Assembly (NCBI GenBank): GCA_030390025.1
Contig: CM059437.1
Location: 4,216,001-4,280,000 of the forward strand
Direction: 5' to 3'
Source of the DNA: Squalus acanthias
Lineage: Eukaryota
Length of the DNA: 64,000 nt
Shown here: positions 5,173-64,000 of the stretch, one piece after another
How the letters are laid out: every line of letters begins with the position of its first letter
Numbering within the stretch: the first letter of the stretch is position 1
Notes under the pieces: model-generated
What the model was told of the DNA's origin: nothing
The model's database searches: none
Seen by the model: only the letters and a program-made list of their open reading frames with translations
Made by a program: the position numbers and the translations under genes

Positions 5173-6633
5173 TAATTTCAGAGAGATTGCGAGATGGCGG
5201 AGCGGGAGTCGGTTTTTATCGATAAGTTCCCAATACTGGTAAAACTTTAGTTGCACCAAATTAGTTTAGAACTTTCCACTGATAACTAAATTTTAAAAAT
5301 GGTAAAAGATGCTATGAAACTGAACAGTTTAAAAGCAAAGTTCTTAACAATTGTTAGTTAGAAATATCTTCAAACCTTCACTTTTATCAAAAGGATGAGG
5401 AACAGATAGAATTGTTCTTACCCAGTGGGTTTATCTTGTGCCGACGCTGTTCATGTTTCCATCATGTCCTGGAACTCAAATGAAAGATTTGTTTATCAAA
5501 CAATTAAGATTTTGAAGTTAACACGTAATTTGGGATGTAATGTAAAGTATTTCTTAGCGCAATAATTTTCCCCTAAGGATTGCATGCAACAATGCATATT
5601 ACTAAATGAAACTTCCTTCATTTTTCAGTGCTCCTATATTTTGAGAGCTACGATATTCAATTCTACAACCCAGCATTCTCACCAAACCCATTTTCTGCTA
5701 ACATTGATGGGTTTTATATTCTTGTTATCCTGTGACAGAACACCGTGCTTAGATTGAAATGAGGATCACATTAATTGGGATGGTTTAAATCTCGATTGAC
5801 AGTGTATTAAGTGACATTTAAACATTGCTGCACACGATTTAATGGAGAAAGCGAGGATCATTGTGTCATGCTGACTTGTTTTAGTCAAATAAATACTGAA
5901 AGGGACCAATGTAATATATGGCGTCCGTTGTAAATATGCAATATCAGGAAGGTGCAGCAATCGTTATAAATGTCTACGCTTCTGTGTATCTTTTCTTTAC
6001 AGTCTAAATGATGTTTAAAGCGCGCCACTGGCATTTAAATCGGTTGTATTGAAAATTAAAGCTTGAAGGTCCTTTCAGTGATAAAGAGAAAATTATAAAC
6101 TCTGCACACTTTCTGCTAAAGGCTGGTGCTGCACTGTGTGTTTGCAAAGCTAGTTCTGGTCTGTAAAACAAATTCACCTACAATATTAATCTTTGAGGGT
6201 CAGTTTATTTATACTGGCGAGTCGTTTCAATGTTATATGCAAGTTTAATGTGGATTTCGAAGAGATGGCGAGTGCCTTCATGCCTCGGATTGTATGTTGC
6301 CCTCAATTTAATGGATTTTAAAACTCGAGTGAATAAGTGCAGTTGGATTTGCAGGGTCAGCGTTTAAAGTTACTAGGAACCAAACGGCCTTCGACATCTG
6401 GTCTCATCTGGAAGCCGAGCTGATTTTTCCAAGTTAAAAACTCAGCTCCACAGGTGAAGAATTTAGCACCAGCATAAATGCTAATGAAAACCCAGTAAAA
6501 TGTGTCCCAGAATAAGAGCTGTGGCCACATTAAGGGGTCGGGTATACAACAGCCCGATTGAGTCGGGATCTGCAGTGGAATGTGTTCGATTCTATTGACA
6601 TTAAGTGAAATGCACCATTTTTTTTTTCAGTCC

Positions 6634-6849
6634 GAAACTGAATTTGTCTACCGCTTTTTTTTCACTCACCAAACAATAAGAATTTCGACCTAACGCGTCA
6701 GATAAACTTCAGATTCCTGGATTAAAAGCTGTTGGCCTTTTCTTTGTTTGTGTGGAGTTGGAAGCTCTCTCTCGCTCTCTAGCACCAAATTTGATGTTTG
6801 TTCCAAGAGGCACCCCTGCCTCTGTCTCTTTTTTTCGTCAGCCAGTTGT
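6634..6849 (-). pseudogene. HoxB11-like pseudogene, homeobox (exon 2) remnant
   Basis: Acceptor TGCTAACAG (AG at 6851-6850). Ordered blocks: KKR, C, NKHQIW (6802-6785), LESE (6782-6771), NKEK (6748-6737), QL, SRNL (6721-6710), SD, R*VEI (6695-6681), VKKK. These match Hox11 [57 protein letters not shown], with several frameshifts and a CAG>TAG stop. Confidence 0.8.
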
Positions 6850-7319
6850 CTGTTAGCACATAAAATTTGCACAGACAGGCAATAAAGTGTCTGGCTGCTG
6901 TGTACGCTCCCTATACAACGCCTTGAAAAAAAACACTGCTTTTAAATGCTGCCACAGCACAACCGTGGGATTGATATTTTAGCTTCTACCCGCATTAGAA
7001 TGTATAGTCTCTATATATTTTTAGAAATGCTGACATTTTTTTTTCGTTGGCGGATAGAGATTTTAGAAGAACTCTAAAAACAAACAACACCACTGTGAAA
7101 ACAAATCTGTAAATTGTACTTGATCGTGGGTGTTTGGTGTGGAGTTCTCAAAGTTTAAAGCACCATTAATTAATTTTAATTGTAAATATTCTGTATGGGT
7201 AAAAATCCAGGGTTTTAAAATATAGGATTGATTGGAAAAAAAATCAGTGTCTTGTTGGAATTTCGTTGCCTCTGCTCGCGCTCTGGGCTCTTTATGACCG
7301 TATCTGGGGCGACTGGCTG

Positions 7320-7834
7320 CAACTGAGTGAACTTCTCTTGTTATTCCTGTCGCGAAATTGTTTTCCCTCCTGCAGTTTCTAACCTTGAAACGGTTCCAGT
7401 CCTAAACTCTATTCCCTGGACGCATTCCCCTGTGGAACTTGTCGCTCATTCTAGAGCGGATGTTTATTCGAGTGATTGTTTAACGTGTTGGATAGTCGAA
7501 TAAGAATCCAATTCTATTGACTGGTTTCTTGTTCGCTGCAGGCATGCTGTTGGCGAACCTTATAGAAAGCAGTTGAATTTTTTTGGGGGTGGGGGTAAAG
7601 TTTAATTAAATAAAGCTGCATCGCCAACATACATAGACAAGCAGCACCTATTAAAAACGGCACCATCTAAAGTCAGAAGGATCAGTCTATTGCAGTGCAG
7701 GCGTCTCAGTACTTCACGAAACCCCAGGTTAGACCCGGCTTTGGGCAAAATTAAAATTCTTAAAATTCACACGCAATTCCTCTTCATATATGTGCCTAAG
7801 GGTAAGTAAATTACCTCCTCTCGTCTTTCAACAT
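7320..7834 (-). pseudogene. HoxB11-like pseudogene, exon 1 remnant
   Basis: caccATG TTG AAA GAC GAG AGG = MLKDER (HoxA11 MDFDER). 7811-7710 reads IYLPLGTYMKRNCV*ILRILILPKAGSNLGFREV (Hox11 MYLPSCTYYV...FLPQ...SNL...VREV, with the YLP-to-LP spacing preserved). Further ordered blocks in shifting frames: AID/DPS..RW, NRCCL (HRDCL), VGD, YPHP...STAFY (YHHP...SSNFY) and a GNNEEK-like block near 7345. Confidence 0.75.
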
Positions 7835-7837
7835 GGT

Positions 7838-7870
7838 GAACCACATGACGTGCGATGTGATCACGTGATC
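7838..7870 (-). promoter_or_regulatory. E-box/CRE-like cluster immediately upstream of the HoxB11-like ATG
   Basis: Minus strand GATCACGTGATCACATCGCACGTCATGTGG: a CACGTGA palindrome followed by GCACGTCA, a motif pair I recall from Hox11 promoters. Confidence 0.5.
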
Positions 7871-10800
7871 GTACCAAGAATGCAACATTACTTGTACCAT
7901 ACACTTCAGAGGCCAACATTGGTTCAAAGGCGGTGGGAAGTCTGCAGCTTTTTAAATGCATCTTTTATTATTGTGTCTGTTGTGGTGTCGATTTGCAGTG
8001 GTAGCCATCAAGCTGCAGAACACAGATATTTCGTGTGAAAATACTGATGATGATTTCGCCGCTCATCTCTTGGAATTAACAAGTTAAAATGTTGAGTTTT
8101 ATTGTAAGGGCCTGTTGTAGGCGACTGTTTATTTTAATAAACACAATCTTGGCCTACTCCTGCTCCCATTTCTCCTGCTCTTATGTCAGAATCCTGTCTA
8201 TTCGCCAAATAGCTATTTTAAAACATCCCATAATTATTTATTTGACTAACTTGTTTCCCAAACTACCACGCATTTTTTTATTGATCGTAATAATTGATTC
8301 AAAATGTCCTTTCAAGGTGACTTGCGCAATATATCCTCCCAAGGTACAGTAGTTAATTAGTACCAGTCTGCCTGTTTTACAATCATTTTAATTGCAATTC
8401 TATTGAGACGTATTAAATCCAACCAAAAATGAACACACCGTGTTCCAGTCAGAGCATGCAAGTATTGCCCTGTGATTGTCACCGTTCTGCCAATCAAGCA
8501 TGTGGAATGTGGCACAAATCTCGTTATTTGTTTTCTTTTGAAATTGAAGTCAAAACTGCAACAAATTCTTTGGAAAAAGGATTAACCCGAGTAACTTATT
8601 TAAACCTTTCACTCTGTACATTGGTTGTGAAATGATTTTTTTTTACTTTAGGGACTCATTTTATTCCCCGCGGTATAAGAATACAAAATATTGGAGGAAA
8701 TATTACATCATGCTGGGCCGGCCCGCACACATTAGCATCGAGGCTTTCACTGACGCCAGCGCTTTCTCTTCAGAGTTCGTTCATCAATCCATGCAGTTCG
8801 TTGGATCCGAGAAAAATAATTGATAGAAGTACAAAAAGAAACAGAGAAGTTGGTCATTCATTCATCTCTATGTTGATGCTGCAGCACAGTTTTTAAACTG
8901 GCTTTGCAGGGTTTATGGGAGGGTTCGTTTTAGGATCGTGGATTAAACCCAAGCATTGTGAAATGAACAAATATGTTCGATGGCAATCAACATAGGAATA
9001 GCAGGGTACTTAGTGCCAATGAAAGTACTGCATCGCTGCAGGACAATCGTCTTGGAACCTGGCTAAGCGGAGCTGTACAGCAGCTTTGAAAAGAATTCCC
9101 TATCGAAAGCAACCAATAGAAATATTAATTCGTTTTCAATAAGAGTGCTGACCAATGCACAAAATGTTCAGCACTCGGCCAAAGTATAAGACTCTCAGAA
9201 GCGCTGTTCATACACAGTAAGTTTTGTGAGCATTTTAAACTTTTAGCCGATGCTCTGTAGAACGACACTCACCAACATCCAAAGAGATTATTTAACTAGC
9301 CAGCAAATAAACTGCTGCTTTCCCGTCTTGTTTCTCCGCGCACTTGTAGTACCCACTCCGCGAAGACTAATGCTTAGCAGTAAACAACATTAGCCCTCAA
9401 ACGGATAGACGTACCGACCACTTCCCCCTATGTTACTGACACGCAGACATGTTCCTCATTCCAACTTTCTGCTCATAAACTCCTGCCCGAAAGGACGTCT
9501 ACAGACATTCTCGAAATTAAATATCTCAAGCATTTTTTCACCGGCTTACTCTTTAAATTTTTACATATATCTTCCTTTTGCAAAAAAAAAATCTGTAACT
9601 ATTTATAAATAATCCCTTTCGGGATGTCTAACAAAACCGGAAAGTTGGTAACTTTTCTACTTTTAGTGAAACTTTTAAAATTTAAAATATGTTGCAGTTA
9701 CGTACGGTTTGACATTGAGATAGCAAACAGAAGTATTCCACATAAATATACAAACATCAGATTAATTCTAAAATGATAGTATTCGTGCACATATCTCAAT
9801 AAAAACCTTTAGCATGTGGCTTTAGGAATACACTGATTTTTTGTTAATCTAACCATAACACAAGGGACAATATCTGTTTTGCAATATTTTTAATAATAGA
9901 AAATATGAAATTCAAGAGCGAGATTAAGGAGACGGTTTGTCTGGGATAAAAACGGAAGATTCCGGAAAGACACAGCGGGTCAGTTTAATACCGGCGGAGA
10001 CAACGGGCAAGTAAACCGTTGGGAAACACCTGAAAGCCTCGCCGGTTTTACTGTTCACAGGTTGAATGATTTGCTAAGCATTTTAGTGCATATTATTTTA
10101 TTTTAAAATTTCTAACGTTGTACGAATTAAATATTTAAAAACTCAGGCTTTGCATAAATAGAAATAAATAACTTTGAATGCACGAGACAAAACAAGTGAG
10201 TTTACAGCGTTATTTCCAAGGCCGGATTAATGTGACAGGCCGATTTTTGCCTGTTTAACCGTTGCCCAAGTGATTGGATATCAGGCTTTACAAACACACA
10301 AGTCACTTAAGTAACCTGACTCCCGCAAATTTTCATCACCTTTACTTTTGTCGTAATATTGTAGCAGGTATAGAGAGGAAATAGGGAGCATTTCACCAGA
10401 TAAGGTTCCCCCCTCCCCTTAAACGGACTGCAAATTGAACATTAATTATTTTTCCTGTTAATGCACCGCATGATCAGCGTTTAAATATCTAGTCCCACTC
10501 TGCGTGTTTCCGATAGGATCGCATTTTTCAAGTGTCGTTTTACAATGAAGTTCCACAAGTTTTGTATAAAATAAAAACATTTTGTCTATAAAACAAATTG
10601 CAGCGAGTTTTTTTCCCCTTTTAACGCCGATTCCTGTTCTGTAGGCACAATTAGCTACCATCTGATTTTTGATCGTTTTACTCGTTCAGAACAAATGAGT
10701 TGCTTCAACCGCAAACAGATCTCGGGTTGGTGCATCAGGGAAACTGAATCAGGAAACAAAATGATTACAGACTAGTTCCACAATTAATGCAAGATGAACT

Positions 10801-20649: not shown

Positions 20650-21995
20650 GACTGGGACTTGGAGAAGGGGCAGAGGAGATTTACCAGAATGATACTAGGG
20701 ATGAGGGACTTCAGTCATGTGAAGACACTAGAGCAGAGAAGGTTAATGAGAGATTTAATAAAGGTGTTCAACATTATGAAGATTTATGACAGAGTGAATA
20801 ATACGAAATTGTGTCAATTGATGGTGGGTCGGTAATCAGAGAATACAGATTTAAGATAATTGGCAAAAGAACCAGAGGGGAGATGAGGAGAATACTTTTT
20901 ACACAGCGAGTTATGATGATCTGGAATACGCTGCCTGAAAGAGCAGTGGAAGCAGATTCAATCATAACTTTCAGAAGGGAATTGGATAAATACTTGAAAA
21001 GGAAAGAAAAGAAAAGAAAGAACTTCCATTCATACAGCACTTTTCATGACCTTAGGACATCCCAAAGTGCTTCACAGCCAATGAAATATTTTGAAGTGTA
21101 GACGTTGTTGTTATGTAGGAAACGCAGCAGTTCATTTGCGCACAGCAAGCTCCCACATCCAAAATACAACACCTCGGACAGTGCAGCACTTCCTCAGTAC
21201 TGCCCCTCCGACAGTGCAGCACTTCCTCAGTACTGCCCCTCCGACAGTGCAGCACTCCCTCAGTACTGCCCCTCCGACAGTGCAGTGCGCCCTCAGTACT
21301 GTCCCTCCAACAGTGCAGCGCTCCCTCAGTACTGCCCCTCCGACAGTGCAGCGCTCCCTCAGTACTGCCCTTCCGACAGTGCAGCGCTTCCTCAGTACTG
21401 CCCCTCCGACAGTGCAGCACTCCCTCAGTACTGCCCCTCCGACAGTGCAGCACTCCCTCAGTACTGCCCCTCCGACAGTGCAGTGCGCCCTCAGTACTGT
21501 CCCTCCAACAGTGCAGCGCTCCCTCAGTACTGCCCCTCCGACAGTGCAGCGCTCCCTCAGTACTGCCCCTCCGACAGTGCAGCGCTCCCTCAGTACTGCC
21601 CCTTCAACAGTGCAGCGCTCCCTCAGTACTGCCCCTCCAACAGTGCAGCGCTCCCTCAGTACTGGCCCTCCGACAGTGCAGCGCTTCCTCAGTACTGCCC
21701 CTCCGACAGTGCAGCACTCCCTCAGTACTGCCCCTCCGGCAGTGCAGCGCTCCCTCAGTACTGCCCCTCCGACAGTGCAGCGCTCCCTCAGTACTGCACA
21801 AGAGTGTCAGCCGAGATTTTGTGCTCAAGTCTCTGGCGTGGAACCTGAATCTACAACCTTCTGGCCCAGAGGTGAAACTTGCTGGGCTATGGGGAAAGGA
21901 GATGCGGTAAGACTAAGTTGATAGGTGTTTCAAAGAGTGGCCTCAAGCACCTGTTCTGAATGGCCTCCTTCTGTGATGTAAGATTCTATGATGCT
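20650..21995 (+). mobile_element. CR1 3' fragment interrupted by a Deu-SINE (~21005-21870, minus strand)
   Basis: ORFs QRRFTRMILGMR and FTQRVMMIWNTLPERAVEADSI. The CR1 tail resumes at ~21880 and ends in GAATGGCCTCCTTCTGTG...TTCTATGA. Confidence 0.8.
21172..21798. repeat. 33-bp minisatellite, 19 copies, derived from a SINE segment
   Basis: Unit CCTCCGACAGTGCAGCACTCCCTCAGTACTGCC. The same segment occurs once in SINE copies at ~47398-47430 and ~36848-36880. Confidence 0.95.
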
Positions 21996-23702: not shown

Positions 23703-25098
23703 GTGTCAGCTGTGGCTCAGTTGGTAGCACCCTTGCCTCTGAGTCAGAAGGTTGTGGGTTCATAGTCCCACTCCAGGGACTTCAGCACATAAATTCTATG
23801 CTGACACTCTAGTGCAATGCTGAGGGAGTGCTGCACTGTCAGAGGTGCTGTCTTTAGAATGAGACATTAAACTGAGGCCCTGTCTGCTTTCTCAGGTGGA
23901 TGTAAAAGATCTTGTGGCACTATTTCGAAGAAGAGCTGGGAAGTTATCTCTGGTGTCCTGGTCAATGTTTATCCCTCAATCAACATAACAAAAACAGATA
24001 ACAACAGAAAACGCTGGAAAAACTCAGCAGGTGAGGCAGCATCCGTGGCGAGAGAAACAGAGTTAACGTTTCAGGTCGAAGACCTTTCATCAGAACTGGA
24101 GACAGCAGGAAATCAAATAGATTTAAAGCAAGGATAAAGCTCCCCTCTTCCCACTGTCCAGGGCCCCAAACACCCCTTCCAGGTGAAACAGCGATTTACT
24201 TGTACTTCCTGCAATTTAGTATACTGTATTCGCTGCTCACGATGTGGTCTCCTCTACATTGGAGAGACCAAACGCAGATTGGGTGACCGCTTTATGGAAC
24301 ACCTCCGTTCAGTCCGTAAGGGGGACCCCGAGCTCCCGGTCGCCTGTCACTTTAATTCACCGCTTCACTCCCACTCTGTCCTCACCGTCCTCGGCCTATT
24401 ACACTGTTCCATGGAAGCGCAGCGTAAGCTCGAAGAACAGCACCTCATCTTTTGTTTAGGCACGCTACAGCCTTCTGGACTCAATATCGAGTTCAACAAT
24501 TTTAGATCATAACCTTAGCCCCATCACATTTATATTTTATTTTCTCATCCACCCTTTTATTTGCCCCCCCCCCTTTTTCTTCCTCCTAGAAGCTGGCAGC
24601 TGTCCTTCATTCTGCCAGTGCATTTCATACTTCTTTCAGCCTTAACCTGTCACATCAACACCACCTCTTGCCTTGAATATCTCTTAATGTTTCTTAATGT
24701 CTCTTAATGTCTCTTAATCTCTCCTTTTGTTCTTTTATCCCCTCCCCCTTTTCCCAGCTTTATCCTTGCTTTAAATCTATTTGATTTCCTGCTGTCTCCA
24801 GTTCTGATGAAAGGTGTTCGACCTGAAACGTTAACTCTGTTTCTCTCTCCACGGATGCTGCCTCGCCTGCTGAGTTTTTCCAGCGTTTTCTGTTGTTATT
24901 TCGGATTTCTAGCATCTGCAGTATTTTGCTATCGTAACAAAAACAGATTATCTGGTCATTATCACATTGCTGTTTGTGGCTGCTGCGTTTCCCACATTAC
25001 AACAGTGACTACACTCCAAAAGTACTTCATTGCCTGTAAGTGCTTTGAGACCTCCGGCGGTCGTGAAAGGCACTATATAAATGCAAGTCTTTCTTTCT
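23703..25098 (+). mobile_element. Deu-domain tRNA SINE (SacSINE1-like), split by Penelope
   Basis: GTGTCAGCTGTGGCTCAGTTGG A box, GGTTCATAGTCC B-box-like sequence, Deu core, tail ...CACTATATAAATGCAAGTCTTTCTTTC. Confidence 0.85.
24000..24934 (+). mobile_element. 5'-truncated Penelope-like element with GIY-YIG endonuclease and inverted terminal repeat
   Basis: ORF 24183-24512 FTCTSCNLVYCIRCSRCGLLYIGETKRRLGDRFMEH...HFN...EQHLIFCLGTLQPSGLN. A ~140-bp inverted repeat pairs 24000-24140 with 24757-24898. The 14-bp TSD TAACAAAAACAGAT is at 23986-23999 and 24935-24948. Confidence 0.92.
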
Positions 25099-27019: not shown

Positions 27020-28690
27020 ATACTGCACCCAGCGACCAGAGCAATTATTCCTCCTGAGGTCCCCACCATCACAGAAGCCAGTCTTCAGCCAATTTGATTC
27101 ACTCCACGTGATATCAAGAAACGGCTGAGCGCACTGGACACAGCAAAGGTCATGGTCCCCGACAACATCCCGGCTGTCCTGCTGAAGACTTGTGCTCCAG
27201 AACTAGCTGCGCCTCTAGCCAAGCTGTTCCAGTACAGCTATAACACTGGCATCTATCCGACAATGTGGAAAACTGCCCAGGTATGTCCTGTCCACAAAAA
27301 GCAGGATAAATCCAATCCAGCCAATTACCGCCCCATCAGTCTACTCTCAATCATCAGCAAAGTGAAGGAAGGTGCCATCGAAGGTGCTATCAAGCGGCAC
27401 TTACTCAGCAATAACTTACTCACTGATGCCCAGTTTGGGTTCCACCAGGAGCAGTCGGCTCCAGACCTCATTACAGCCTTGGTCCAAACATGGACAAAAA
27501 AGCTGAATTCCAGAGGTGAGGTGAGAGTGACTGCCCTTGACATCAAGGCAGCATTTGACTGAGTGTGGCATCAAGGAGCCCTAGTAAAACTGAAGTCAAT
27601 GGGAATCGGGGAGAAAACTCTCCACTGGCTGGAGTCATACCTAGCACAAAGGAAGATGGTTGTGGTGGTTGAAGGTCAATCATCACAGCTCCAGGACATC
27701 GCTGCAGGAGTTTCTCAGGGCAGTGTCCTAGGCCCAACCATCTTCAGCTGCTTCATCAATGACCTTCCCTCCAACATAAGGTCAGAAGTGGGGATGTTCG
27801 CTGATGACTGCACAGTGTTCAGTGCCATTCGCAACTCCTCAGATAATGAAGCAGTCTATGCCTGCATGCAGCAAGACCTGGACGACATTCAGGCTTGGGC
27901 TGATAAGTGGCAGGCAACATTCGCACCACACAAGTGCCAGGTAATGACTATCTCCAACAAGAGAGCATCTAAACACCACCCCTTGACATTCAATGGCATT
28001 ACCATCGCCGAATCCCCCACCATCAACATCCTGGGGGTCACCATTGACCAGAAACTTAATTGGACCAGCCACATAAATACTGCGGCAACAAGAGCAGGTC
28101 AGAGGCTGGGTATTCTGCGGCGAGTGTCTCACCTCCTGACTCCCCAAAGCCTTTCCACCATCTACAAGGCACAAGTCAGGAAATAATCTCCACTTGCCTG
28201 GATGAGTGTAGCTCCAACAACACTCAAGCAGCTCGACACCATCCAAGACAAAGCAGCCCGCTTGATTGGCACCCCATCCACCACCTTAAACATTAATTCC
28301 CTCCACCACTGGCGCACCGTGGCTGCAGTGTGTACCATCTACAAGATGCACTGCAACAACTCACCAAGGCTTCTTCGGCAGCACCTCCCAAACCCGCAAC
28401 CTCTACCCCCTAGAAGGACAAGGGCAGCAGGTGCATGGGAACACCACCACCTCCAAGTTCCCCTCCAAGTCACACACCATCCTGACTTGGAAGTATATCA
28501 CTGTTCCTTCATCGTCGCTGGGTCAAAATCCTGGAACTACTCCCTAACAGCACTGTGGGAGTACCTTCACCACACAGACTGCAGCGGTTCAAGAAGGTGG
28601 CTCACCAGCACCTTCTCAAGGGCAATTAGGGATGGGCAATAAATGCTGGCCTTGCCAGTGATGCCCACATACCAATTAATAAAAAAAAGA
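27020..28690 (+). mobile_element. 5'-truncated CR1-clade LINE, RT domain to 3' end
   Basis: NYRPISLLS, DIKAAFD*VWH (TGA at 27560-27562), GVSQGSVLGP, FADD and LGVTID motifs. A frameshift/deletion falls near 28180. The 3' end is GGGATGGGCAATAAATGCTGGCCTTGCCAGTGATGCCCACAT plus an A-rich tail. Confidence 0.93.
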
Positions 28691-45018: not shown

Positions 45019-46070
45019 AACAACAACAACAACTTGCATTTATATAGCACCGTTAACATAGTAAAACGACCCAAGATGCTTCACAAAAGAGTTATCAAAC
45101 AAAATTTGACACCGAGCCCCATAGGGGATATTAAGGCAGATGACCAAAAGCTTGGTCAAAGATGTAGGTTTTAAGGAGCGTCTTAAAGGAGGAAAGAGAG
45201 GTAGAGAGGTGGAGAGGTTTAGGGAGGGAATTCCAGAGCTTAGGGCCCAGGCAGCTGAAGGCACGGCTGCCAATGGTGGAGCGGTTAAAATCGGGGATGC
45301 GCAAGAGGCCAGGATTGGAGGAGTGCAGGTATCTCAGGGGGTTGTGGGGTTGGAGGAAATTACAAAGATAGGGAGGAGTGAGGCCATGGAGGGATTTGAA
45401 AACAACGATGAGAATTTTTAAATCGAGGCTTAACCGGGAGCCAATGTACCTCAGCGAGTACAGGGGGTGATGGGTGAACGGGACTTGGTGCGAGTTAGGA
45501 TACGGGCAGTAGAGTTTTGGATGAGCTTAAGTTTACATAGGGTGGAAGATGGGAGGCCGGCCAGGAGTGCATTGAATTAGTCAAGTCTAGAGGTAACAAA
45601 GACACGGATGAGGGTTTCAGCAGCAGATGAGCTGAGGCAGGGGCCGAGTCAGGTGATGTTACGCAGGTGGAAATAGTGATGGCATGGATATGTGGTCAGA
45701 AGCTCATGTCGGTATCAAATACAACACCAAGTTGCAAACAGTCTGGCTGAGCCTCAGACAGTTGACAGAGAGAGGGATGGAGTCAATGGTTATGGAATGG
45801 AGTTTGTGGCGGGGATCGAAGACAATGGCTTTGGTCTTCCCAATATTTAGTTGGAGGAAATTTCTGCGCATCCAGTACTGAAAGTCGGACAAGCGATCTG
45901 ACAACTTAGAGATGGTGGAGGGGTCGAGGGAGGTTGTGGTGAGGTAGAGCTGGGTGTTGTCAGCGTACATGTGGAACCTGATGCTGTGTTTTTGGATGAT
46001 GTCACCGAGATGCAGCAGTGAGATGAAAAATAGGAGGTGGCCGAGGATACATCCTTAGGGGATACCACAC
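45019..46070 (-). mobile_element. L2 LINE 3' portion
   Basis: MYADNTQLYL...LSDRLSDFQYWMRRNFLQLNIGKTKAIVF, with a (GTT)n tail. Confidence 0.85.
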
Positions 46071-47880: not shown

Positions 47881-48555
47881 AACATAGCATAAGATATAGG
47901 AGCAGGAGTCGGCCATTCGGCCCCTCGAGCCTGCTCCGCCATTCAATAAGATCATTGCTGATCTTCTACCTCATCTCCACCCTCCTGCACTATCCCCCTA
48001 TCCCTTGATTCCCTTAATATCCAAAAATCTATCAATCTCTGTCTTGAATATACTCAAGGACTGAGCCTCCACAGCCCTCTGGGGTAGAGAATTCCAAAGA
48101 TTCACCACCCTCTGAGTGAAGAAATTCCTCCTCATCTTGGTCCTAAATGGCCGACCCCTTATTCTGAGACTATGACCCCTGGTTCTAGACTCCCCAGCCA
48201 GGGGAAACATCCTCCCTGCATCTACCCTGTCAAGCCCTGTAAGAATGTTGTATGTTTCAATGAGATCACCTCTCATTCTTCTAAACTCTAGAGAATATAG
48301 GCCTAGTCTACTCAATCTCTCCTCATAGGACAATCCCCCCCCCTCCCCCCCATCCCAGGAATCAGTCTGGCGAACCTTCGTTGCACTCCCTCTATGGCAA
48401 GTATATCCTTCCTTAGGTAAGGAGACCAAAATTGTACACAATACTCCAGGTGTGGTCTCACCAGGGCCCTATATAATTGCAGTAAGATGTCTTTACTTTT
48501 ATCTTCAAATCCTCTTGTAATAAAGGCCAACATACCATTTGCTTTCTCAATAAGG
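47881..48555 (-). mobile_element. Relatively young CR1 3' fragment
   Basis: ORFs LYRALVRPHLEYCVQFWSP and LSYEERLSRLGLYSLEFRRMRGDLIETY...FFTQRVVNLWNSLP, with the CR1 tail. Confidence 0.92.
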
Positions 48556-56796: not shown

Positions 56797-57044
56797 TTAA
56801 GGTGTGTTGGTTTTTACTTTCGCAATGACTTTCTTTTCCTTGACTCTCCTGTTTTGAAACCAGATGGTGATCTGCCGTTCGCTCAGGTTCGTAGCCGCCG
56901 AGATCTTCCTTCTCTTGTCTTTCGTGATGAATTTATTTGTTGCATATTCCCTCTCCAGTTCTTTGAGTTGGACTTTGGTATAAGGGATCCTCTTCTTCCT
57001 TCCGCGCCGAAAGGAACTACCATCCTGTTGGTGCGCTGCAACAT
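56797..57044 (-). CDS. hoxb13: HoxB13 exon 2 (homeodomain)
   Basis: [81 protein letters not shown] and AKVK point to B13 rather than A13/C13/D13. Acceptor CAGCAG|AT follows a pyrimidine-rich tract. The joined CDS is 676+248=924 nt, in frame. Confidence 0.95.
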
Positions 57045-57478
57045 CTGCTGTGTGTAGCCAGACACACCCCGCCAAAAAAAACACAAGACAAGCACATCAG
57101 AAAAATGTAACATTGGAAAATAATGTTGAAAAACGAATTAAACAACACGCTCATAATCAATAATTTTCAGTATCCAAAAGGAATACATTTAAATTAACTG
57201 ATGTATCAGACACTACTGGTTAATGCTGTATAATATTCCAAGGATTATAACTAAATCACAACACTAAATTTCGAATGATATTCCAACTGAGCTCCTTGCA
57301 TCGGGAGCATAAAATAAAATTGTACAATTTTCAATCCTGTTCTAAATTTCGGCATATTGTCAGAAATAAATCATTATCTTTCAGTTCCATAAGGCCATAA
57401 TGTTTCCAATATAATTAAACATGCAATTATTTTTAGATGCTTATCCTTCTAGGAAGGAATGCAAAGGTCACTTGTTAC

Positions 57479-58154
57479 CTGCAAGTGTGGATTTCCAGAG
57501 GTGTCCCGGCTGTGCTTGTTCCTTAGAACAGTACATCTGGCTGTTCCAGCCATTGAGGGCCCAGGGCTGGTAGCCGTCCATAGGTAACAAGGCTTCGTGC
57601 CTCGGCTCTCCCGCGCCACTGATAGTTTGCACTACAGAAACATCTAGATAACTTGGCATTGGTTGGTAGGGACTCGCATAGCCGTGGTAAAAGGCGAATT
57701 CCTTCGGCCGCCCTGGGTATTCATCGGTGGGGACAGGACTGTCCATGTACTTGTCTCCTGGGTAACTAGATAGGGCGGCAGGCTGGGTGCAAGGCTTGAT
57801 GGAACTTCGCCCCATTCGACAGGAATAGTAGCCGCTGCCGAAATATCCGTATGGTAAAGGGGCGGCGGTGGAGGCCTGGGGCACCGGGCATGGGGTGCAT
57901 TGCTTGCCGGGCTCCACCACCCCAGAGCCGGAGACGTCGACTGTTGAGTAGCCAGAGCCGTGAACCAAAGGTGAAGGATGAGCCCCGAGCGCAGAGTGAG
58001 CCATCAAATTCCTGCACTGATTCGCAGAGAAATTCCCAGCACCAACAAATCCTTCCATTGCCCCGCTATTCTTATTAATCTCATCCGAGTTGTTTTCATA
58101 CAGGAACATTACAGTGTCGACCCAGCGCGGTTTGAGAAGCAGTGACACTGTCAT
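57479..58154 (-). CDS. hoxb13: HoxB13 exon 1 (676 nt coding, phase-1 intron follows)
   Basis: [24 protein letters not shown]...[14 protein letters not shown]...KEFAFY...YLDVSVV...EPRHE...[19 protein letters not shown]...LWKS contains the Hox13 N-terminal motifs. Donor GCAG|GTAACA, with GT at 57478-57477. Confidence 0.96.
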
Positions 58155-61300: not shown

Positions 61301-61871
61301 ACAACACACAAGTGATGTGTTAAAGTTTTTATATGTGACCAATCGCAGAGGTCTTCGTCTATTTTCTAACATTGCACCAAACTTCACAATAGATTGGAAA
61401 GGGCGGGGTGATATGAAGTTTGGAAACTACACCAAAGCATTCCTGTTATTCACCGCAATTAAATCTTTGTCAGACTTCAAAATATAACAGCATAATATTA
61501 ATATTTGAAAATTCAAGGTCATTTTGAAAGTCCGATTTGACTGAGGCGGAATATCTTTTAAAAATAAAAATAAATGTTTGCCCACACGCTTTCTATCATT
61601 TTGAAATGCTATGTTTCTTTTGTACTACTTTTTTCTTGTTCAATTATCTATCAACATAAGACACTTATTTACATTGTAATGCCTCTGCCGATGTGTAAAG
61701 GGCAGCATTTCCATTTTTTTTTAAATCGCAGTCTTGAGTCTGTGTTGCGAGTAAAGGTTCAGTGTAAACAGAGATGGGTCGGGGCTGGAGGGAGGGAAAG
61801 TTAGACCGAAGACGAGACACAAGCAATTAAAGGAGACTGGGCTTTTTTACATACGGGTTAGACACGGCTGA

Positions 61872-61889
61872 AGGCCAAGGTCAAGGTGA
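61872..61889 (+). promoter_or_regulatory. Triple half-site DR0-like element upstream of HoxB13
   Basis: AGGCCA-AGGTCA-AGGTGA with no spacers. TCAAGGTCA also occurs at ~61513. Confidence 0.45.
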
Positions 61890-64000
61890 AAGTTAAGAGT
61901 CTAGCCGCTCCGAGAGCTTGTCATTCAAGGGCTTTTCCTTCCCGTCTGAGTCCCATCAAAACAAAACCCCTGATCGCTTCACTGCTTCTTTTATTCGTTG
62001 GGAACAACATTCGGAAGCCAATATTCCTCAGGCAGCGGGGTTCACAAGACGGTGTGAGACCCATTAATTTAAAGAAAAACTGGTTTCGAAGAGGTTCCAA
62101 GTAATTTCATAGAACGTCCTTTTGTACTTTGTACTGGGCTTTCGCAGTTCAACATCTGCTTCCTAAACAATCTGACATTAGGCAAATAAAACCTCCATTT
62201 GCACATGTTTTCTTAAGAAAATGCAAAAAAAAAACAACTGGTTTGTTCACGTATATAATATTATGGCTTTAGCATATTACAATTCTAGTTTTGTTTCAAA
62301 CCGCGTTAACCTAACAAAATATCAGAACCGCGGTAAAGCTAGTAGTCTGAAATGTAATTCAGTGTAGATTTCAGGTATCCCGACCCAATGCTAACACAAT
62401 GTATAAAAAACATTGGTCAATCACTACTTGAGATCATATTCTTGGATAATAAAGACGTTTTAAATAAACCTTTATTTTTTTTTAACTTTCTGTTGTGTGT
62501 GCAGGTTTGGTTTTGTGTACACATCCAGTTTTTGAAAGCTTCAGTCACATACAAAGACTACAGCCCAAGTATGAGCACCGTGTTAACCGTTCACTGGACC
62601 TTGATTTGTTTAGAGGTGCGGGGTCTCGTGCTGTGCCCCATACTAAAGTTGCACAATGCTTAGTTTATTTCTCCCCAAAGCATGTAGATATTGCAAATTG
62701 TAAGGGGGAGTCGAGGTAATCCGCTTTGCGATTTAGGTTGAGAAAGAGTAACAGTGTAAATGATTAAAATGTCAATACAATCACTGGCAAAATCTCCCTG
62801 ATTATCCATTAGTTGATTTGTTTTTAAATATTTTATTTGCACAGCAATCCCAGTTAAACTTCAATATGTGTTATTTATATGAAATAATTTGCTCACTAAG
62901 GGACGGCCCACAGACCCAACATTGTACATGAACCAAAGAAGCGACAACACAGATCGGCTTGGAGCAAGAGTTATTTCGAGTAACTTGATTGTTTTTATAA
63001 TTTTAAACAATTTAAGGTCTGTTTTTAAATTCACACATGCACACTTGTCACATGTCGACGGACGCCCAGTTGTATAATATTACAGTCTTTACATGAAAGG
63101 GGTTTTTATATTTTTTTCTCCAAGTTTGTTTTCTGTTGCGAGACATACATATTGCTTTGACTGGTGCCTTTAGCGGGGATTGGTGGAGGGAGGGTGTGAA
63201 AGTGTTGAGTGAAGGTCACATAAACGCTCCATACCTGATGGTGGCGAAATGCGTCGTTTTAAGAAATTAAGATCAAGAAGAGCGAGTTACTTAGTGTCCG
63301 AGAAAAAGTACCAGCAAGGGAAGCACAGCTGGGAAGAGCCATTCTGACCAGACTGCGGCACGTTTGCTTTAACAGGATTCGCCCTTGCTCGTCTCCGCTT
63401 TATTCACTGATCGCGGTTTATGACTTATGTGTGTTTGCGGTGTAGTTGCGGTCCCCCCCCCCCCCTATATATTTAATTTTACACTGGCAAACGTGCGTTA
63501 TTTGAGGTGCTTTGATAAAAACGCTTGAATCTTTTTTTTAAAGCGAGAAATTGACGTGAAATTATGAAATGGGTATTTTGGAAACGGGGAGATAGCCTTC
63601 ATTGACATTCCCTGTGTTTGCAAAGAATGTGGCGCATGTTTTCCCATCTAAACCATCTGTAGGTATGGGAATGGCTACATGCCAAGTCTTTGAGGTAGAG
63701 GTATTCCTCCTCAGTATGGCTAGTTACCACATTCTACTGTTATCAACATGACAAATTAACCCGACTCGTTGTGTGAAGCACTTCCCAGACCTTTCCACGC
63801 GATCAGCTGCTTATGAACATGCAATAATTAATTTTGGACATTATACTGCAAAAGTGCCATTTTAAAGTTATAATAATCTGCCATATAGTTCCCAAAACAA
63901 TGTTAACAGCCCCTGTATTTATTTATCCAGTACATTGTGCTGTGTGTGTTTTCTATGCAGTTCCAATGATTGTGTCCTTATTAATACAATTAATCACCTT

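Follow-up and report, generated by a model that had tools for sequence, protein, structure and literature searches.

A decayed homeobox with a Hox10-type arm and a Hox11-type core in the apparent HoxB11 position of Squalus acanthias

In-place Hox pseudogenes are already known. The elephant shark is described as having 45 Hox genes together with Hox14 pseudogenes in the A and B clusters, psiHoxA14 and psiHoxB14 (PMC3707753), and 34 Hox genes are given for the catshark (PMC11979771). In the part of PMC7269910 available to us, hoxb14 is counted as lost in bony vertebrates and the Hox14 pseudogenes enlarge the inferred ancestral inventory. HoxB11 and HoxB12 are absent from the jawed-vertebrate inventories as set out in the available parts of three accounts (10.1101/2024.07.20.604409, PMC3707753, PMC11979771). 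The first of these describes the mouse HoxB cluster as having no b10-b12, and the long gene-free spacer between B9/B10 and B13 as insulating Hoxb13 in mice.

The stretch of Squalus acanthias DNA analysed here, the window, is 64,000 nt long (C13:4216001-4280000, in an assembly of 3.7 Gb). It holds a decayed homeobox that a preliminary description took for part of a two-exon HoxB11 pseudogene. What is new relative to the known pseudogenes is the B11 slot and the mosaic of two paralogy groups. The remnant is apparently undescribed; its novelty is likely, not secured. There was no report of a HoxB11 remnant in the literature searched, including the available parts of PMC4166920, PMC1845163, PMC5054437 and 10.1101/2025.06.08.657570, where a pseudogene mark in a figure or supplement could still hide. 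Among the matches listed for 'HoxB11' no title concerned a shark pseudogene, and 'hox' is absent from the main text of PMC3964593.

The HoxB cluster and the slot of the remnant

Judged from its sequence the cluster is HoxB. The intact homeoboxes on C13 near the window are those of a Hox9, a Hox10 and, at 56800-58154, a Hox13 gene. HoxB13 is the best solved-structure match of the Hox13 gene, which is HoxB13-like at the residues that differ from HoxA13. The gap between Hox10 and Hox13 is long and the A and D clusters lie elsewhere, with the genome's own HoxA11 on contig C4 (97% identity to chimaera HoxA11) and its own HoxD11 on contig C3 (96% identity to sawshark HoxD11). The names B9 and B10 are assumed by us from linkage to B13; protein atlas look-ups gave no name to the cluster. 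A third Hox11 gene was not found in the assembly by family search or with a sawfish HoxC11 query, and among the 77 matches from the whole assembly HoxC11 was missing and a fourth Hox cluster was not apparent. The missing HoxC11 would agree with a cluster that is really HoxC, or with a misplaced copy of A11, D11 or C11. These two readings and a HoxB12 origin are largely refuted and, taken as a set, very improbable; HoxC is contradicted by the Hox13 gene, which matches HoxB13 where HoxA13 differs.

The remnant and the Hox13 gene are both on the minus strand, which agrees with the orientation given in the preliminary description. HoxB10 had been expected just outside coordinate 1; the Hox10 start codon is in fact at C13:4201461, 14.5 kb past it. 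Hox10 and Hox9, both intact, lie downstream of the remnant, B10 at a distance of 21 kb.

Several other features were seen in this and the related clusters. A mir-196 precursor between HoxB10 and HoxB9 (L006:5496-5569, minus) was the sole Rfam match. The genome's own HoxB10 exon 1 (C13:4200730-4201461) appears from alignments to have diverged more than A10 and D10 have from each other. HoxD14 at C3:22655681-22657407 seems intact, with a split homeobox, and adjoins an Evx-like gene; contig C1741:11724-11909, with a HoxD12-like score, is perhaps a duplicate haplotype. An 87-nt element at window 61841-61927 has 86% identity to a stretch 3 kb above HoxA13, and its 20-nt exact core is also found above HoxD13. 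The window further contains a tandem array of ~24-nt units with several frames open (21050-21920), the end of a high-copy repeat (8149-8190) and broken retroelement-like frames in the spacer (24138-24512, 27098-28642, 45131-45526 and 47998-48468), which we take to be reverse-transcriptase- and endonuclease-like.

A conserved element on the minus strand (C13:4213351-4213501; L004:7351-7501) is common to the stretches 3' of HoxA11 and HoxD11. Going 3' from the remnant it is reached after 9 kb, with B10 a further 12 kb on. The A copy, which follows A11 by 2.4 kb, scored 3306, and no more than 2295 was reached in 12 shuffled strands of 124 kb; the D copy, 1.7 kb 3' of D11, shares a core of 33/39 nt, which is not significant alone (2/12 shuffles were higher). 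Tandem AGGTCA-type half-sites, presumably a nuclear-receptor site, are carried by the B copy. Regulatory regions RVIII/RIX and RX are placed between Hoxd11 and Hoxd10 in the available part of PMC3091776, and the element could, at a guess, be one of RVIII, RIX or RX. The remnant thus lies 5' both of Hox10 and of an element that trails Hox11 genes; it is the first gene-like feature 5' of that element and therefore fits the 3' end of a Hox11 gene.

A profile of the A11/D11 5' regions gave a match 2.6 kb past coordinate 1 (32.7 bits, at most 28.6 in 25 shuffled strands). As a Hox11 promoter 9 kb downstream this match would set the remnant in the Hox12 slot, a point in favour of HoxB12. It was rejected as a second fossil, a "HoxB11 promoter", on three counts: the bases align better to the 3' element of A11, no coding trace follows, and the core is also in the D copy. 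A duplicated B11-B10 spacer was sought upstream and left no trace, the shared matches being short or multi-copy and repeat-like. No significant similarity to the introns or 3'UTRs of A11 and D11 was found.

Table 1. Features of the HoxB remnant, the RNA that crosses it and the HoxB13 landmark (window coordinates)
Feature	Position	Strand	Remark
Start of next RNA exon	5441..5468	minus	AG at 5470-5469
Decayed exon 2 of a posterior Hox gene, N-terminal arm and homeobox	6634..6849	minus	Stops, 8-10 indels
Hox11-diagnostic core (F..H-T-NKEK)	6737..6763	minus	
Hox10-type arm and start of helix 1	6788..6847	minus	NWLT, K, R, KHQI in ungapped Hox10 register
AG, likely former splice acceptor	6850..6851	minus	Phase 1 as in the own intact Hox9-13 genes; role inferred
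Probable former intron, ~400 bp	6852..7249	minus	Inferred from spacing
Probable former exon 1 region	7250..7845	minus	Weak generic posterior-Hox signal
Exon of spliced, apparently non-coding sense-strand RNA	7815..8012	minus	AG before 8012, GT at 7814
E-box/CRE-like 8-mer cluster	7846..7868	minus	TCACGTGA, GATCACAT, GCACGTCA
Intact HoxB13, two exons	56800..58154	minus	5' landmark

A Hox10-type arm joined to a Hox11-type core

The homeobox remnant is real. A codon-aware, frameshift-tolerant Hox11 profile built from 26 HoxA/C/D11 proteins scored 29.5 bits on it, against -0.6±2.8 for shuffled sequence, and none of 300 shuffles scored as high; the preliminary description had proposed just such a frameshift-aware alignment with shuffled controls. 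The remnant is the only such outlier among the 282 tiles between HoxB10 and HoxB13. As proposed earlier, an AG, here placed at 6851-6850, is followed by a decayed homeobox, which runs from 6847 to ~6640. DNA alignment with 13 exon-2 and 14 exon-1 sequences from the same genome locates it at 6825-6650, with D11 (3335) and A11 (2636) at the top and background bests of ~1,700-2,400. The D11 alignment has 104/155 identical positions and 8 gaps, and elsewhere in the window the next score of this query is at most 1835. At the sensitivity of the search used, the assembly has one copy of the stretch. Its disabling stops and frameshifts are mostly shared with one other species, as in a unitary pseudogene within its cluster.

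That the homeobox is a chance pattern in A-rich intergenic DNA is hardly credible. The default frameshift protein alignment reached only 38 points, without signal, and Pfam assigned none of the six read-through frames to a Hox family; both are too insensitive, and together with an exon 1 that is not significant they are what a chance origin has in its favour. It is refuted for exon 2 by the shuffles (0/300, z ~10-20) and by the tile scan, in which a mosaic model scored 44.0 at the remnant and never above 9.9 in the 281 remaining tiles. The same method also recovers, as a positive control, the Hox14 pseudogene above HoxA13. Remnants of B12, B14 or A12 were not found in the stretches searched, which for B14 extended only to 26 kb above B13 (C13:4274154-4300000); psiHoxB14 is the form reported for the elephant shark (PMC3707753).

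The first codons after the AG are NWLT, with 12/12 nt identical to the own HoxB10. By sequence N-W-L-T is a Hox9/10 motif, overlooked in the preliminary description; we take the Hox10-type tryptophan arm to be a Pbx-contact motif absent from groups 11-13. Read without gaps from 6847, codons 1-7 agree with A10 at 16/21 nt and codons 29-37 with D11 at 21/27 nt, arm and core each at the proper homeodomain position in one register. Extended through (H/Y)Q, the arm matches A10 at 16/21 and 22/39 nt with no gaps (z ~10.5); it does not single out B10 over A10. In the core A11 agrees at 18/27 nt and Hox9/10 at 8-11/27, and the Hox10 core MYLTRERRLEI is not matched (8-11/27 nt, ~-1 bit).

Groups 10 and 11 tie over the whole of exon 2 owing to the Hox10-type N-terminal arm: A11 scores 33.4, B10 31.4 and D11 31.1 bits above null. 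Arm and helix 1 score 27.9 on B10, 27.5 on A10 and 15.3 on A11, the middle segment 10.2 on D11, 8.8 on A11 and about -1 on the Hox10s. Between homeodomain position 12 and the stop, D11 (20.1 bits above null) and A11 (19.8) are followed by B10 at 8.9. The positions from 39 onward do not discriminate (D12 7.5, B10 6.1, A11 5.7), so that the Hox11 evidence is carried by ~20 codons. Of the Hox11 homeobox originally described, then, the NKEK core stands; Hox11 is the best match from position 12 and shares first place with Hox10 over the whole exon, so that a best match to another paralogy group, named in the preliminary description as a refuting outcome, is partly seen. The last third, weakly best on D12, is the other point for HoxB12; a pure Hox12 model reached 14.7 bits against 31.9 for Hox11, D12 being the only Hox12 model used.

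The initial paralogy test put group 11 ahead by 9-11 bits with queries that began 4 residues before the homeodomain and omitted NWL; this pure group-11 result is superseded by the tests on the whole exon with NWL included. The phylogenetic trees, like the decay estimate below, used a 66-codon set lacking NWL, and on those codons the homeobox groups with A11 (68-77% support, three alignments, one of them built without Hox11).

With both strands of 124 kb scanned, the codon pattern NWL[T/H] occurs at three sites, namely B9, B10 and the remnant. Of 409 homeodomains checked 308 have a Hox11 core, and NWL is found in none of these; only three have a tryptophan within 10 residues before the homeodomain, none as NWL. 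The motif is also absent from lamprey Hox11-alpha-type and hagfish Hox11-I. A Hox10-to-Hox11 mosaic with a break between -3 and +24 gained 14.1 bits over the best pure model, a gain reached in 0/1,500 simulated decays of pure genes. When cyclostome and teleost sequences were added, the gain was 17.4 over pure Hox10 (0/1,820 simulated decays, half of them under A-biased mutation); over pure Hox11 it was 13.2 (0/1,300), that is 0/3,120 over both pure models. With breakpoints up to +36 the reverse mosaic, 11 to 10, did worse than either pure model. The Hox10-to-Hox11 structure came to light only on inspection of the data, and the simulations include the breakpoint search. The sequence comparisons show the remnant to be a mosaic of a Hox10-type arm and a Hox11-type core, and they support descent of the core in the HoxB11 slot from a Hox11 homeobox.

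Two other origins have to be weighed against this structure. One is an ancient B10 copy, arisen by tandem duplication of Hox10, whose central homeobox was overwritten by Hox11 conversion or drifted towards a Hox11-like sequence. It would account for the Hox10-type arm and helix 1, for KHQI, which is also in teleost B10a, and for the undiagnostic 3' third with LSD as in the own B10; the Hox10-like blocks of exon 1 considered below can be counted with these. Drift is contradicted by the simulated decayed Hox10s, none of 1,820 reaching the observed gain of 17.4 (maximum 10.7), and conversion needs both events, a duplication and a conversion. A place 5' of the Hox11-downstream element is, moreover, the one expected of a Hox11 3' end. 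We regard the duplicate as unlikely. The donor of the conversion would most likely be a now-lost HoxB11; drift would imply no B11.

The other is an ordinary two-exon HoxB11 pseudogene, in which NWLT is an ancestral arm kept only by B11 or arose by chance during decay. The Hox11 core and the grouping with A11 (NWL codons omitted) agree with it, as do upstream a Hox11-like 8-mer pair at 7846-7862, the C-terminal third of exon 1 (1-4/300 shuffles) and the faintness of exon 1, which is compatible with heavy decay. A chance arm is opposed by the 0/1,300 decayed Hox11s that reach the gain. A kept arm would require repeated independent loss in A11, C11, D11 and the cyclostome Hox11s, and NWL is in 0/308 Hox11-core proteins. 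Such a plain HoxB11 is quite unlikely.

Former exon 1, a spliced RNA and the age of the remnant

By sequence the region upstream of the intron is probably the old exon 1. The end of the exon-1 profile peaks at 7251-7274, and the gap from the last exon-1-like block (~7250) to the AG is ~400 bp, not the ~470 bp first estimated. With the Hox11 exon-1 profile (26 sequences) 10-15 of 300 shuffles scored as high as the whole exon, 64-204 as high as the N-terminal third and 1-4 as high as the C-terminal third, which ends near 7254. Hox9, Hox10 and Hox11 exon-1 profiles were each equalled by 8-14/500 shuffles and exceeded by 69-106/290 ordinary genomic tiles. An assignment of exon 1 to Hox11 is not supported, the profiles being no better than those of Hox9 and Hox10 and the N-terminal third at chance level. 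Nor is one to Hox10: a three-sequence profile had given 2-5/300 shuffles, the group separation was lost in the larger test, and the Hox10 5' profile gave 46/400. In decay simulated from D11 at t=0.5-0.6, the exon-1 z was at most 2 in 3-35% of runs; by simulation a true exon 1 can be faint at heavy decay and usually is not.

The strings listed in the preliminary description (CACGTG, caccATG-MLKDERR*, YLP..TY, LP, SNL, REV, DPS..W and RGNE) all occur, in the stated order. They are not supported as Hox11 exon-1 blocks, with 64-204/300 shuffles N-terminally, groups 9, 10 and 11 equal and Pfam blank; Hox10-like blocks can be read by eye as easily. The ATG at 7834, proposed as start codon, opens a frame of only 7-8 codons. 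Exon 2 of the proposed two-exon Hox11 anatomy has been found, and that anatomy is unproven because exon 1, which matches Hox9, Hox10 and Hox11 equally weakly, fits no single group.

Further upstream the 8-mer cluster of Table 1 is suggestive only, as sequence, of a Hox11-like promoter trace. Two of its 8-mers, at 7846-7862, are in common with the D11 promoter, and the pair TCACAT+CACGTCA is found in the 300 nt that precede A11 and D11, and in those that precede 0/12 other Hox genes checked. The promoter profile was not significant (7-8/200 shuffles as high), nor was a combined promoter and exon-1 model that puts the Hox11 5' element at ~7800-7750 (10/60). A match to the A10 5'UTR at 8055-7978 (0/100 shuffles; one of 13 promoters tried) was not reproduced by the Hox10 5' profile (46/400). 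CpG over the remnant is unremarkable, with no enrichment.

The locus may be crossed by a spliced sense-strand RNA that skips the homeobox, the evidence for which is weak and comes from one contig in one run. In run X5, which is RNA by the guess of the tool and is not recorded as such, a 198-nt contig at 7815-8012 has a depth of 132 against 13-14 on the flanks. One contig has a loose end at 7814 whose only and exact match is at 5441-5467; the junction is GT-AG, and the resulting 2.3-kb intron spans the whole remnant. A GT donor is present near 5421, after the second RNA exon. The ATG of the preliminary description falls inside the first of the two exons.

The codon positions indicate that the remnant is an old paralogue and not a recent copy. 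Compared with A11 it is identical at 83/111 sites of codon positions 1+2 and at 27/58 of position 3 (p=0.00035), and A11 and D11 agree at position 3 to a similar degree (25/58). Simulated direct copies reach this pattern in 0-3% of runs. A recent misplaced copy of A11, D11 or C11 is excluded because of the third-position divergence. Identity at invariant sites (0.78) and the score are both consistent with 0.25-0.45 substitutions per site since death. Between the paralogues 106/163 four-fold sites differ, ~0.75 per lineage by Jukes-Cantor; since the decay is smaller than this, the gene probably lived well past the cluster duplication, rates having changed over time so that no date follows.

Four of the 23 listed runs were compared with the locus; X12 and X13 yielded no long pieces, which does not speak for absence. 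One other species (run X15) is represented by a single contig that covers 6001-6567 and 6656-8600 and differs by 137 substitutions over 2,512 nt, ~94.5% identity. Its homeobox has 3 small indels among the differences listed, beyond which there are 84 further substitution and 9 further indel entries. The lesions therefore mostly predate the split of the two species. There was no sign of constraint on the remnant.

The psiHoxA14 of this genome (C4:68920235-68920547, minus; L010) has both homeobox exons gap-free against the own HoxD14, at 62/96 and 47/67 nt. It has in-frame stops and is far better preserved than the HoxB remnant, with 0 indels in 163 nt against 8-10 in ~155 aligned nt. It was rejected as a clock and shows only the greater decay of the remnant.

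Origin of the remnant and comparison with known Hox pseudogenes

The reading we favour, and consider probable with real room for doubt, is that the remnant is the fossil of a HoxB11 homeobox recombined with a Hox10 gene, most simply the neighbouring HoxB10. That HoxB11 existed just after the duplication follows from 2R logic; it would then have outlived the vertebrate genome duplications for some time. A crossover between the misaligned, near-identical homeoboxes of B10 and B11, with the break at about -3 to +24, would have produced a 5'-Hox10/3'-Hox11 gene that kept the B11 3' flank just upstream of the intact B10, and the displaced full B11, if any, would since have vanished. Exon 2 would look no different after a conversion tract. 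The hybrid would have lost function and decayed by ~0.25-0.45 substitutions per site and many indels, and would now encode nothing, lying within an intron of the non-coding RNA spliced from the sense strand. The remnant, its position and its mosaic nature are observed, and B10 as donor, the crossover mechanism, the order of events and the timing are what we infer from them. A single crossover predicts a Hox10 exon 1, and the exon-1 test did not separate groups 9, 10 and 11.

The recombined gene, a plain HoxB11 and the conversion form of the B10 duplicate all lead to a HoxB11 that outlived the duplications. A changed inventory of the ancestral jawed vertebrate requires a gene alive at that node. 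It is possible, and in our view doubtful, that early jawed-vertebrate HoxB had a working hybrid that persisted beyond the divergence of bony fishes and was lost on the cartilaginous-fish lineage. If so, the hybrid adds a gene to the ancestral inventory and directly documents that Hox paralogy groups exchanged sequence after the duplications. With a physical trace, when and how HoxB11 was lost becomes testable. The Hox10/11 mosaic suggests recombination with a neighbour as one way, and a loss of this kind is relevant to how the long gene-free B9/B10-B13 spacer arose.

Among intact genes the remnant resembles HoxA11, HoxC11 and HoxD11 (Pfam PF12045 DUF3528 and PF00046) in the NKEK, QL, SR core and in its place upstream of the 3' element; unlike them it has a Hox10-type NWLT arm, an undetectable DUF3528 and no open frame. 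With HoxA10, B10, C10 and D10 it shares the NWLT..K..R...KHQ arm in exact register, whereas its core is of Hox11 type. Among the pseudogenes, psiHoxA14 and psiHoxB14 of the elephant shark, as far as they are described in PMC3707753, are likewise decayed posterior Hox genes in chondrichthyan clusters; they belong to another paralogy group and slot, and the shark HoxB remnant is a two-group mosaic and far more eroded. The bowfin hoxd14 pseudogene, reported as transcribed in the available part of PMC8423624, is also a dead Hox locus that still makes spliced RNA; the shark RNA differs in that it skips the homeobox and is known from a single contig, in a run that is not recorded as RNA. The psiHoxD12 of caecilians and the psiHoxD13 of the coelacanth are described, in the available parts of PMC3091776 and PMC4470032, as in-cluster pseudogenes in an expanded, repeat-rich interval, as here. 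Both of these have living orthologues, whereas the inventories compared contain no living HoxB11.
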